This document shows, piece by piece, positions 13,173-23,544 of a DNA stretch of 31,351 nt (its first letter is position 1; every line of letters starts with the position of its first letter). This DNA comes from a virus (lineage: Duplodnaviria; Caudoviricetes). The stretch lies in IMG/VR virus record IMGVR_UViG_3300048631_000054, positions 1-31,351 of that record; one strand, written 5' to 3'. Under the pieces are notes generated by a model. It saw only the letters and a program-made list of their open reading frames with translations. It searched no databases and was not told the origin of the DNA. The position numbers were made by a program, and so were the translations under genes.

Positions 13173-14024
13173 TCATTCCTTATCAAAGTAATCGTAAATC
13201 TCATGAACCTTAGGATAATTAACAACTTTAGCTAAGAATCTAGGACCAGTTGAGTAGGCAAACACCTTAACATCAGGGAAACAGTGCTGCTTGTACATAC
13301 AATAGCTACAAGGCATAGCTAACTTCATGTTTCCTGACTTACCTTCAGGTACTAACTCATAGCATTGCTCAGGTTTCTCATCATCTGCAACCATACACTT
13401 CAAGTAATCAATCCGTTCACCGATAGGGTCATCGTACTTAAAGTTCTCAAAGTGAGTACATAAGTTACCATTAGTCTTATCAATGACTAACCAACCACCT
13501 TCATCGTGTCCTAATGATGCAGCATAGCCTCGTAGTTGGTCGATATAACCGAATGGGTCATCATTACGTACGTTTCCTTCCTTGAACTTCTTAAATCCAA
13601 AGGTAGAAGCTGTCTTAACATCAATCAACATACCATCAATGACACAATCCATCGAACCTTTGACTCCATTTACCTCAGCCTTATGTTGTTGATGGGTAAC
13701 TTCATGCCCAGACAAGGAAGCTAGGGCAAGTACAAGCTCTTCAGTCGCATGACCGTATAAGAACTTCATCAATGTAGCTGGTGTCATCGATTCATGGGTG
13801 TATTTTCTATGTCTGTACCACAGGTATCTATCTTGCTTTCCTATGCTACTCATACGAAGTTTTCCACCATCGTCATGCTTCGTAAGTACGTTGTTTTTTA
13901 AGATATTCTTCATGGCTTCACCAAAGTTATCCACAATCTTATCCACATCTACACCTTCGGCTGCTTCGTTTGTTTTCAGCACCTCATAGATGTCATCTAC
14001 TAAATCTTCAATCTTCTTCATCAT
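13173..14024 (-). CDS. PD-(D/E)XK (Cas4-like) exonuclease
   Basis: LRMSSIG..R.LWY, GH..E, GSMD..DVKTAS, QLRGY, CSYC..C. Confidence 0.88.
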   Translation of the reverse strand: MMKKIEDLVDDIYEVLKTNEAAEGVDVDKIVDNFGEAMKNILKNNVLTKHDDGGKLRMSSIGKQDRYLWYRHRKYTHESMTPATLMKFLYGHATEELVLALASLSGHEVTHQQHKAEVNGVKGSMDCVIDGMLIDVKTASTFGFKKFKEGNVRNDDPFGYIDQLRGYAASLGHDEGGWLVIDKTNGNLCTHFENFKYDDPIGERIDYLKCMVADDEKPEQCYELVPEGKSGNMKLAMPCSYCMYKQHCFPDVKVFAYSTGPRFLAKVVNYPKVHEIYDYFDKE

Positions 14025-20967: not shown

Positions 20968-21192
20968 TTAATAGTATTGATTCATCTTAGCACCATGTAC
21001 CTCAATGAACTTATCACTGACGTACCTATCGATGTCAGTCAGCTGGTTTTCCCAGACTCGTCCAAGCTTAGCCACCTCTTCATCAACGAATGAATAACTC
21101 TCGTATAAGTTCTGAGTTAGAATCATTCTAGTCGGTGAGTTAATGACTAACTTATCTAGGTAAGCCTTCTGTTTCTTATTAAAGGTAGCCAT
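20968..21192 (-). CDS. Hypothetical early protein (start probably MATFNKK at 21192)
   Basis: TAATG coupling with the upstream regulator. Confidence 0.65.
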   Translation of the reverse strand: MATFNKKQKAYLDKLVINSPTRMILTQNLYESYSFVDEEVAKLGRVWENQLTDIDRYVSDKFIEVHGAKMNQYY

Positions 21193-21587
21193 TAGAAAGA
21201 CCACCATCTCTTCTTATGCTTAGCTATTATCTGACGTATGATAATCCTCATAGGTAAGTCTTGCTTCTTTGCTAGTTCAAGTACATAGTCATGGTCTTCT
21301 TCAGAGCTGGGTAACGAGTAGTTCTCCCTCCTCTTTTCCTGTAGCTTGATAGGCTTGTGCTTAGGTACTAAGTCTTCGATAGCTTCAATGACTTTGTTCT
21401 TAGACTGTAACTGAACTGAAGCCTCATTCCCACTAGGTATCTCAGGTACGTGATTCTTCAAGTGTTTGTATATTGATTGTGAAGACAAGCCTAGTATCTT
21501 AGCTACCTGTAGCTTTGAAATACCCTTGTCATGTAGAGCCTTCATCTTATTATATTGACTCATTGTTATTCTTCTTCCTGTACTCAT
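21192..21587 (-). CDS. Putative transcriptional regulator: N-terminal HTH plus C-terminal ribbon-helix-helix-like segment
   Basis: LHDKGISKLQVAKILGLSSQSIYKHL; NYSLP..EEDHDYVLELAKKQDLPMRIIIRQII; AGGAG RBS. Confidence 0.72.
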   Translation of the reverse strand: MSTGRRITMSQYNKMKALHDKGISKLQVAKILGLSSQSIYKHLKNHVPEIPSGNEASVQLQSKNKVIEAIEDLVPKHKPIKLQEKRRENYSLPSSEEDHDYVLELAKKQDLPMRIIIRQIIAKHKKRWWSF

Positions 21588-21615
21588 GTTGTTACTCCTA
21601 CGTTGTTAAAATCCC

Positions 21616-21657
21616 AGACTAATCCATTCCCTAAAACACCTAGACTAATCCATTCCC
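21616..21657. repeat. 16-bp direct repeat AGACTAATCCATTCCC, two copies
   Basis: Exact copies at 21616-21631 and 21642-21657, upstream of the HTH gene. Confidence 0.9.
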
Positions 21658-21716
21658 CGATACTGCCCCGATTATTTATAAAGTAATGATAGACAATCAG
21701 TGTAGATACGAACAAT

Positions 21717-21740
21717 AAAAAGAGAGACCGAAGCCTCTCT
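21717..21740 (-). terminator. Rho-independent terminator of the 21758..22156 gene
   Basis: Minus strand AGAGAGGC-TTCG-GTCTCTCT then TTTT; C(UUCG)G loop. Confidence 0.88.
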
Positions 21741-21757
21741 GATTGTTTAGTTAATGT

Positions 21758-22156
21758 TTATCTTTGTTTAGGTACAAAGTCTGAATCAACTTCTTGATTA
21801 GTAACTTTCATCTTACTTCCTTTAAGAGGTTTAACATATTCTCTACCTAAGATTTCTAGATGTTTTAGTTTAAAGTCTTTCTGCATACCTTCTAAGTTTA
21901 GAATCTGTTCGTCTAGCTGGTTTAGGTAAGTACCTTTGCTTGCTAATGCCCTAGAGTTACTTTCAGTACCTGTAGAATCTTCTTTTAATACTTGGTATTG
22001 AGCGTAGTTCTGACGGTAGGTTGTTAGTTGATAATCTAAATCACTTTCTAACCAGTATAGAGTTCCTTTGATTGTTCTGGACTGCGTAGTATATTCAAGG
22101 TTGGAGCTGTCATCTGATGGAAGTGAATCGATGTATTTAGTGTTTAAGTTTTTCAT
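21758..22156 (-). CDS. Orphan coiled-coil protein, stand-alone transcription unit
   Basis: AAGGA RBS, own terminator, heptad pattern; first gene of the - arm. Confidence 0.8.
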   Translation of the reverse strand: MKNLNTKYIDSLPSDDSSNLEYTTQSRTIKGTLYWLESDLDYQLTTYRQNYAQYQVLKEDSTGTESNSRALASKGTYLNQLDEQILNLEGMQKDFKLKHLEILGREYVKPLKGSKMKVTNQEVDSDFVPKQR

Positions 22157-22447
22157 TGTTTATCCTTTTTATTGTTTTATAAGATGTCCTATGGACGCTG
22201 TAAAGGAAACGTGCTAGGGATTTAAGGTCAACATCAAGGCTACCTTAGTGAGCACAGCGAACTTAGGAAGACTTAGCGTGTTTAGTGTTGACCTTAGATT
22301 TCTAGTATGTTGGGATAGCAGTGGGCTTAGGTTCATCTTTGCTATAAAACAATAACAAGGTTAAACAAAGCTATGAATAACTTAAACATGGGTACTGAGA
22401 TGAACGTACTGAGGATTACACGGAAACCTTGAATATACAAGTAGTCC
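22079..22447 (+). repeat. Long imperfect inverted repeat / hairpin (about 370 nt)
   Basis: Nested stems 22089-22102/22425-22438 (14/14), 22141-22156/22373-22388 (15/16), 22156-22181/22343-22368 (24/26), 22208-22233/22286-22311 (26 pairs including 5 G-T). Confidence 0.93.
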
Positions 22448-22470
22448 TATTGTTTCCTAAACACAGCTAG

Positions 22471-22497
22471 TTTCCTTTGTTTCCTTTGTTTCCTTAG
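22471..22497. repeat. 9-bp tandem repeat TTTCCTTTG x3 (last copy TTTCCTTAG)
   Basis: Read directly; a partial copy at 22453. Confidence 0.85.
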
Positions 22498-22767
22498 TAT
22501 ATGTCTAATGTTAATTTAAATAAACAGTAGTTAATCTGTGTGTCAGTGTAAGTAGGTTTGATTGTCTGTCGTTAGGTACTTTGACTGTCTATCATTACTT
22601 CACACACTCATGGATACTACGGTAACAAGAGACACTCGAGTATCTGTAGCGACTGTATCAACGGGGTAGGGGGACCCATGTGGTGACTCCATACTATTAA
22701 TTAACAATCATTATCAGACGAGAGAAGGGTTTGAGATTTGTAGATAAATAGTAGAACTAATGTAAAC

Positions 22768-22801
22768 CTGTGGATAACTATAGGAAAGCTGTGGATAACT
22801 A
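22768..22801. promoter_or_regulatory. Two perfect DnaA boxes within a 13-bp direct repeat CTGTGGATAACTA
   Basis: TGTGGATAA (reverse complement TTATCCACA) at 22769-22777 and 22790-22798, 21 bp apart. Confidence 0.7.
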
Positions 22802-22830: not shown

Positions 22831-22859
22831 TTTACTTTACCTTGTTTATCAGCTACAAT
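22831..22859 (+). promoter_or_regulatory. Putative sigma70 promoter for the packaging/structural arm
   Basis: TTTACT-17 bp-TACAAT. Confidence 0.6.
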
Positions 22860-23157: not shown

Positions 23158-23544
23158 ATGTCTACTAAATCTAAACATCAAGGTAATCCTAACTTTGTTA
23201 AGGGAATGAAATCCCTAAATCCCGCTGGCAGACCTAAAGGTTCTGTAAATAAATATACCCAACTCGCTAGAGAACTACTCAGTTCTAGAGGTGAAGAGAT
23301 TGTTGAGGTTGTCATTGCTAAGGCTCTTAAAGGTGATGTTCACTGTTTAAAGATGTGTATGGACAGGATTGTCCCTGCGCAGAAAGCTATTGAGATTAAA
23401 CATACTAAAGCTGAAGGTGGTTTAGTTATTAATGTTGGTACGACTGAACAGATTGAAGAGATGGCTAAGGTCACTAAACCTAAGAGATTAAAGACTAAAG
23501 GTGATGATGAGGTCATAGCTGAGGTATTAGATGGGGACTCTTAA
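23158..23544 (+). CDS. terS: Terminase small subunit (DUF5681-like N-terminus)
   Basis: FVKG.S.NPAGRPKGSVNK motif, KALKGD..CLK..DR..P; overlaps terL. Confidence 0.85.
   Translation: MSTKSKHQGNPNFVKGMKSLNPAGRPKGSVNKYTQLARELLSSRGEEIVEVVIAKALKGDVHCLKMCMDRIVPAQKAIEIKHTKAEGGLVINVGTTEQIEEMAKVTKPKRLKTKGDDEVIAEVLDGDS

Follow-up and report, generated by a model that had tools for sequence, protein, structure and literature searches.

What is a long imperfect hairpin doing at the point where the early and late genes of a double-stranded DNA phage diverge, and is it the folded DNA or a folded RNA that is under selection? The window, by which we mean the whole analysed stretch of 31,351 nucleotides, is the record of an uncultured podophage, of which about 85% is present. 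The minus strand carries genes for a T7-like primase/helicase, a DNA polymerase and an SSB, the plus strand those for terminase, portal and capsid; its portal distantly resembles HMO-2011-type portals. The hairpin is located at the early/late divergence. Its parts, and the gene they touch, are the following.

22079–22447, plus strand: imperfect inverted repeat (hairpin); plus folds better than minus and serves the first early gene as template.
22079–22234, plus strand: left arm, complement of the promoter region, the ribosome-binding site (22162–22167) and the first 26 codons of that gene.
22243–22267, plus strand: tip module, in which a stem interrupted by a T.T mismatch is followed by 3 bp, the tandem GA/GA, 2 bp and the triloop ACA.
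22285–22447, plus strand: right arm, a non-coding, sense-like inverted copy of the left arm, present here as a short allele.
21758–22156, minus strand: first early gene, 132 aa, a predicted two-helix hairpin with no named family according to structure prediction and searches.

The original prediction of a hairpin at 22079–22447 is borne out. Over these positions the folding energies as RNA are −149.8 kcal/mol for plus (z −12.0) and −100.4 for minus (z −7.7); as DNA they are −67.9 for plus (z −10.1) and −55.7 for minus (z −7.8). Not one of 100 shuffles matched any of the four folding energies, and the hairpin score of 88 compares with at most 36 anywhere else in the window. The comparison of both strands as RNA and as DNA, proposed together with the prediction, therefore gives unequal energies, lower for plus in both cases, with a minus strand that is still structured; the claim that only the plus strand folds well is right about which strand folds better and wrong about the other one, which is also far beyond chance. 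The core (22208–22233 with 22286–22311) contains 21 Watson-Crick and five G-T pairs and no A-C, as described before, and the additional G-T pairs reported for the flanking stems are present as well: one in GCTGT/ATAGC, one in GGACTGC/GTAGTCC and three in GTATTTA (22133–22139)/TGGGTAC (22389–22395), the last stem being read off the sequence and the alignment. In a strand-neutral alignment 13 G-T stand against one A-C (binomial p 0.002), in accordance with the claimed excess. The internal loops at 22106–22120/22408–22424, in which GGA lies opposite GGA and TGA opposite TGA, are kept in the related locus L051 and resemble sheared-purine DNA motifs. A contig from a public DNA run, which may be the source sample, is identical over 21963–22434.

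It is not a free-standing intergenic hairpin, since the left arm overlaps the minus-strand ORF at 21758–22156 by 78 nt and takes in its ribosome-binding site as well. Because the left arm is the complement of the gene start, the right arm reads like the sense strand of that start without coding for it, and the template is the strand that folds better. The main feature of the locus, missed earlier, is that the first transcription unit is mirrored in the right arm, by a copy which in many relatives is as long as the whole gene. The slot of the first gene is variable, with three BLAST-separable protein families across relatives. The 132-aa protein has eight close homologues, none of them named; it gave coiled-coil-like matches only against PDB sequences, one match without a name in BFVD at E≤0.001, no Pfam family above cut-off, no viral locus by pattern and no usable Atlas feature match.

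To see how far the mirror extends in relatives, two further features are needed.

23158–23544, plus strand: probable small terminase subunit (terS, DUF5681), directly before terL, the anchor for fetching relatives.
21721–21740, minus strand: intrinsic terminator-like hairpin of the first early gene, at the left edge of a swappable module.

Through the small terminase 80 loci were fetched (clade 1), 46 of them with at least 1100 nt upstream. Full arms, covering the entire first gene, are found in 13 of these 46 (nine distinct); short arms like those of the window are found in L005, L045, L052 and L057, and the other clade-1 loci have hairpins of 85–200 nt or little. The covered clade-1 genes are of 126–145 aa and belong to two families unlinked by BLAST, each with its own mirror. 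A tip-motif match (L089) led to a second marine clade, in which the small terminase shares 32–53% identity with its counterparts in HTVC103P, HMO-2011-type and related phages; here long arms are present in 32 of the 60 loci with at least 1500 nt upstream and the first two small genes are covered. Over both clades the mirror of full-arm relatives extends for 450–650 nt; the right arm of such relatives measures 480–700 nt, and clade-1 full arms about 480–760 nt. In most of the 27 full-arm loci inspected by eye, the arm reaches a terminator-like hairpin with an A-run and has its outer end there or shortly beyond, the exceptions being L026 and L280. The DNA of the hairpin region has no match among cultured phages; no long arms were found in HTVC103P, HTVC115P, HTVC033P, ICBM1, ICBM2 and RIO-1, and no long inverted repeat in the first 4 kb of the last three. 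Several clade-1 loci (L007, L009, L013–L016, L024) have no gene mirror and instead carry two shorter near-perfect hairpins, of ~85 and ~155 nt, before other first genes.

Near-identical strains from public runs differ by a paired change at 22237/22273, and in some the whole module at 21721–22580 is replaced by a 1373-nt alternative. Such replacements in near-identical phages, together with widely varying arm lengths and tips and mostly random mismatch spacing, would fit a mere by-product: an inverted duplicate that is repeatedly created and kept uniform by template switching at the genome end and does little more than help to swap the first-gene cassette. We find this very unlikely: strand-biased mismatches, kept internal loops and compensated cores need selection, and two distant clades share a similar arm length ending at the terminator.

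The evidence for selection comes from several comparisons. Folded as DNA, the plus strand is better in 16 of 16 clade-1 and 20 of 20 non-redundant clade-2 loci (36 of 36), with an energy gap between strands below 3% in L056, L058 and L067. An alignment of eight core sequences gives 39 consensus pairs on plus (−33.7 kcal/mol), 21 of them with two-sided changes, counted regardless of relatedness, and 24 consensus pairs on minus (−14.1 kcal/mol). Compensatory changes in relatives, named earlier as a check, are thus present. At sites where aligned genes differ, Watson-Crick pairing is kept in both loci at 16 of 19 sites for the window and L051, 9 of 11 for the window and L005, 28 of 36 for L035 and L058 and 96 of 143 for L056 and L051; the mirror follows unrelated gene families through compensatory changes. 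Isolated mismatches in the 20 non-redundant clade-2 loci are G-T in 71 cases versus A-C in 21, and G-G in 31 versus C-C in none. The corresponding clade-1 numbers (27 loci, window included) are 32 versus 19 and 15 versus 1, with G-T and A-C at 22 versus 6 outside coding DNA and 10 versus 13 inside, where T.T and C.T prevail. Strand-biased mismatches (G-G 31 versus C-C 0), kept internal loops and compensated cores together indicate selection on one folded strand, and the conclusion that selection acts on a folded plus strand is supported. Of the earlier view that selection acts on folded single-stranded DNA, the selection for plus-strand pairing is thereby upheld; G-T wobble is compatible with RNA as well. 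In the clade-1 coding arms of L056, L067, L038 and L048 transition mismatches are scarce, and T.T, C.T and a bulged A, often in a TAG context, are common; the spectrum of MutS mismatch repair might account for the few transitions. The mirror is modestly enriched in TAG (55 to 87), a lead that was dropped. Regular spacing of mismatches was rejected as a feature, being clear in one of seven loci and borderline in one.

If RNA is the folded molecule, a transcript over both arms, made by minus-strand read-through from the terminal side or as an antisense plus transcript, would form a long duplex and hide the ribosome-binding site, gene and terminator. The effect would be to keep a host-toxic first gene silent or to let transcription pass the terminator into the later early genes. 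The mirror covers exactly the ribosome-binding site, coding region and terminator, as an antisense regulator needs, and complementarity to a ribosome-binding site and coding region is what cis-antisense and type I TA-like systems have. The conserved G-T positions of the core look like G.U wobbles, G-T reaches ~11% of pairs in some clade-2 arms, the minus strand folds strongly too, and GNRA-type loops are commoner on minus in the zone (13 versus 8; 22 versus 7). However, the mRNA strand is the worse folder as RNA in 15 of 16 clade-1 loci and carries C.C and A.C mismatches, and a GNA triloop is typical of DNA. The coding arms of clade 1 have fewer G-T than T.T or C.T mismatches, which is not the pattern of natural RNA helices. 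No promoter is conserved at either outer end; for rightward promoters at the left outer end the mean best score is 6.4 versus a background of 6.0 ± 1.9 (25 loci). Rfam gave no match in the window and, in nine loci, just two miRNA hits below threshold. RNA-labelled contigs X15, X16, X18 and X19 cover terS/terL or run from ~22840 on; they are unstranded and their gap at the hairpin is uninformative. On balance we hold control at the RNA level to be unlikely.

The tip bears on the same choice. It was correctly placed at 22247–22263, and strains and relatives carry C-GAA-G or C-GTA-G in this place, strains swapping GC-ACA-GC for C-GAA-G. GCGNAGC mini-hairpins are described as extraordinarily stable in DNA and as used at single-stranded DNA origins and N4 promoters, and r(GCGAAAGC), the one RNA counterpart given in that account, is far less stable than its DNA form (PMC13037366). 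The exchange of GNA triloops backs the DNA-type tip of the original prediction, but the module is present in just 10 of 80 terS-linked relatives; some carry it at the hairpin tip, others as an isolated element within the predicted terminal repeat. From the DNA stability of GNA mini-hairpins and the variability of the tip it follows that the tip favours DNA, yet is a swappable cap and not the defining part. Single-stranded DNA and RNA motifs are described as hard to separate computationally (PMC5737381).

Could transcription start within the folded strand? Two candidate promoters are relevant.

22288–22316, plus strand: candidate fold-back promoter, a -35-like TTGACC (22288–22293, paired with 22226–22231) with TGGGAT (22311–22316).
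22176–22204, minus strand: candidate ordinary sigma70 promoter of the first early gene in duplex DNA, TTTACA-17-TATAAA, by consensus match only.

TGGGAT lies 17 nt past TTGACC, in a purine-rich internal loop opposite 22202–22207, and is a non-canonical -10 without the conserved A. In 13 of 16 clade-1 loci a -35-like hexamer is no more than 60 columns away from the tip, versus 14 of 92 background stretches; the clade-2 enrichment is weak (12 of 20 versus 42 of 148). In the window the ordinary minus-strand promoter scores 9.6 and the fold-back one 8.1, and in many clade-2 loci, too, the ordinary promoter is equal or better. A good -35/-10 pair is located on the mirror arm of L056, L067 and L322, and it is the sole well-spaced pair in L056 and L067. 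Unpaired columns are not enriched at −10 to +1 in clade 1 (0.28 versus 0.27). The good rightward sigma70 matches on the mirror arm of L056, L067, L322 and L323 could also serve a decoy, that is, a mirror transcribed rightwards from its own promoter into an RNA that soaks up antisense RNA or a host guide directed against the first gene. These matches are not conserved over loci, and the pairing bias and closing stems concern the intact plus strand, tip included, for which reasons we regard the decoy as the least probable of the explanations considered.

The position of the genome end is the next question, and it involves the following features.

21681–21704, plus strand: outer motif, left copy (TGATAGACAATCA), predicted partner of the right copy if the module is single-stranded.
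22577–22600, minus strand: outer motif, right conserved copy, a candidate terminal-repeat edge at 22589.
22589–22703, no strand: predicted direct terminal repeat of ~115 bp, holding a G-rich motif at 22663–22677.
22769–22798, minus strand: two DnaA-box-like 9-mers upstream of terS and present in 35 of 65 clade-1 loci.
22831–22859, plus strand: candidate late sigma70 promoter upstream of terS.

Motifs and contig ends suggest a genome end ~140–260 nt to the right of the hairpin, near 22589–22703. The G-rich motif resembles the start of the RIO-1 terminal repeat; in the annotated 121-bp repeat of RIO-1 this motif is separated from the repeat end by 33 nt. The motif at 22577–22600 is kept across clade 1, usually ~80–90 nt from the G-rich motif, and the outer motif is confined to both module edges plus one partial repeat. 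Among 39 truncated contigs from relatives, four break off at 22589 or 1 nt away from it, where ~0.08 would be expected; two of them come from near-identical phages, and the variable module may have caused breaks in the assembly. The early-side contig L390 begins 26 nt past the G-rich motif. Full arms end within ~40 nt of the predicted repeat edge in six of nine clade-1 loci, and in 31 clade-2 loci a distance of 1–100 nt separates the end of the right arm from a conserved G/C motif. The contigs of clade 2 showed no fixed end. Unitig depth in public run X2 does not double over the predicted repeat. In run X5 depth is ~1.8-fold higher to the right of 22610 than in both alternative modules combined, a step which was not counted because X2 has none. 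A repeat at 22589–22703 would place the 3' end of the plus strand just to the right of the mirror. Cobaviral terminal repeats are described as lying in the ORF-free gap between both genome arms, and the same account treats the SIO1 inverted repeats as a likely misassembly (PMC6775973). These SIO1 repeats were rejected as a counterpart, as they are 98–100% identical and far apart, unlike the element described here. The outer motif as a sigma70 -35 box was dropped, there being no conserved -10 at the proper distance. An invertible segment was rejected, as no strand-change joints occur in eight run sets; the same result, with imperfect arms and unique flanks, speaks against a protelomerase telomere or inverted terminal repeat, and no protelomerase or terminal-protein gene was found among 39 ORFs.

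An end so close to the arms also fits DNA end processing without any role in transcription. A 3' overhang remaining at the early end would fold into a rod and leave only the terminal repeat unpaired for the annealing of concatemers, or, after a nick at the outer motif, the fold-back would prime DNA synthesis. Priming of this kind has been proposed for the T7 hairpin end and for Streptomyces telomeres; the palindrome of T7 (the hairpin M-end) is short and lies on the other side of the repeat. The strand bias and the DNA-type tip are the same under this reading, and it agrees with the proximity of full arms and predicted repeat edge (within ~40 nt in six of nine clade-1 loci), with the outer motif pair closing the module even in loci without long arms and with the tip module alone inside the predicted terminal repeat in several relatives. 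It leaves unexplained why the arm stops at the terminator and starts at a -35 box, and short or absent arms, which are common, would be odd for a core packaging step. We hold end processing as the whole explanation to be unlikely, too.

Frpo and ssi elements are single-stranded DNA promoters of the leading regions of IncF and IncI plasmids, in which fold-back gives a duplex promoter (PMC9849209, PMC11541004). The reading that we prefer, tentatively and at rather less than an even chance, is that the element is an inverted non-coding mirror which by a Frpo-like fold-back rebuilds a duplex template from single-stranded DNA for the first gene or genes. Fold-back is the simplest single account because the mirror runs from promoter to terminator, the selected pairing is that of the template strand and a predicted 3' end is nearby. 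A plus strand with its 3' end at 22589–22703 would be bared if the entering DNA is resected 5'→3' or if lagging-strand synthesis stays incomplete, and near this predicted early genome end the mirror would fold back as a stand-in non-template strand. Host RNA polymerase would start at the -35 box beside the tip, where the internal loop may form a ready-made bubble. A non-template strand is needed for RNA release, and a full-length mirror would let the RNA be displaced and the terminator work. The short allele of the window, similar in size to Frpo-type promoters, would rebuild the promoter, leader and first 26 codons only. The weak point of the model is a source for the 0.4–1.3 kb of single strand that a double-stranded DNA podophage would have to expose; the two named are candidates.

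Fold-back is favoured by full arms in two clades, arms ending at the terminator, co-evolution with the gene and the plus-strand bias, and also by the -35-like box near the tip, DNA-type GNA triloops, the lack of a rightward outer promoter and the end signals. It is weakened by the poor -10 of the window, the better ordinary promoter, the weak clade-2 enrichment of -35 boxes and the lack of unpairing at −10 to +1; a -35 box near the tip would also be expected if an ordinary promoter were merely duplicated. The clade-1 coding arms (G-T 10 versus A-C 13) and the small strand gap in L056, L058 and L067 count against it, as does the fact that most relatives are without the tip module, many without long arms and the cultured phages without any. 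The missing fixed end of clade 2 and the missing depth doubling in X2 weaken it as well. A more specific version is a self-templating first operon, in which the mirror rebuilds promoter, gene and terminator when the entering end is stripped to one strand, so that the first, perhaps nuclease-blocking, protein is expressed from DNA under host degradation; this we consider doubtful.

If the model holds, the element works like Frpo but is not a member, as it is not part of a conjugative element and mirrors coding sequence. Like Frpo and ssi, it is a long imperfect hairpin of the template strand upstream of the first-expressed genes, with a -35-like box in the stem. Unlike them, it belongs to a double-stranded DNA tailed phage without a known single-stranded stage, the -10 of the window is non-canonical, and the duplex of relatives spans whole genes up to the terminator and co-evolves with them. 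What surrounds it is not the leading region of a conjugative element; it is T7-like replication genes, terminase, portal and capsid. With the N4 vRNAP promoters, the G4 origin and RSF1010 ssiA (PMC13037366) relatives and strains share C(GNA)G/G(GNA)C triloops, but those mini-hairpins are short and read by a phage RNA polymerase or primase, and the module, with the ACA loop in the window, caps a stem of hundreds of bp; a scan of 39 ORFs revealed no phage RNA polymerase. To the REP-like GTAG/CGTC repeats and Ssn-related motifs (PMC3733652, PMC11893778) the link is the tip module, which our searches also located in bacterial intergenic hairpins. The present element is single-copy and no GTAG/CGTC tag was seen; nor did these 39 ORFs, from a record lacking ~15% of the genome, include a RAYT or Ssn-type nuclease. 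In the PeSL cassettes of T4-type phages (PMC2839356) early genes are likewise swapped as cassettes with conserved motifs and terminator borders; the PeSL cassettes are numerous, short and of direct-repeat type, whereas here one inverted mirror of coding sequence is present and the outer motif occurs only at the two module edges plus one partial repeat. The two-arm genome, the non-coding divergence as likely end and the RIO-1-like G/C motif are shared with the terminal repeats of Zobellviridae as presented in PMC6775973.

Among the papers covered, searched by title and opening of the abstract with few subscription journals, none described a phage mirror of a whole first transcription unit. Single-stranded DNA promoters are established for conjugative plasmids and not for double-stranded DNA tailed phages. 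A whole-unit mirror in two marine clades implies either an undescribed single-stranded or extruded phage end or a new kind of RNA silencing that acts over whole genes. In both cases the finding would concern the way in which phages that lack an RNA polymerase of their own express a first gene against host nucleases.

Several other observations concern the surroundings. A resolvase-type HTH_7 protein (21192–21587, minus strand) adjoins the module and is a candidate binder of the pseudo-palindromic outer motif. To the left of the module, at 21608–21657, there are two copies of a 24-nt direct repeat, kept in many relatives and possibly a recombination or binding site. A second pair of DnaA-box-like 9-mers is located at 13927–13947 within a Cas4-like exonuclease gene. 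Where the late and replication arms converge their stop codons overlap (12755/12748), which differs from the bidirectional terminator described for cobaviruses.

The tip module itself is also found elsewhere. A motif search with the loop left unspecified gave at least 120 loci, mostly chance matches within ORFs; among the matches listed ten were judged non-coding and structured, and in seven of these a C-G or G-C pair closes a GNA triloop. Nothing beyond chance matches came from a short tip query. With the triloop fixed, 21 bacterial loci were obtained, mostly intergenic hairpins; nine belong to a single Clostridium genome, and CGTC-like repeats of Rickettsiales contain two. Three copies each occur in the unrelated phage contigs L088, L102, L173 and L186. 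L088 (2400–2700) and L102, contigs of 117–121 kb, hold three T.T/GA-GA modules and other GAA-triloop hairpins in one non-coding stretch, a cluster for which no match was found among cultured phages. In L173 and L186 the copies are nested or repeated, some around long inserts. Nine loci (L224, L226, L228, L229, L232–L234, L236 and L239) represent a multi-copy intergenic palindromic repeat of Clostridium neonatale that includes the tip module; no Rfam family covers L224 or L229, and in L229 three repeats stand in tandem.
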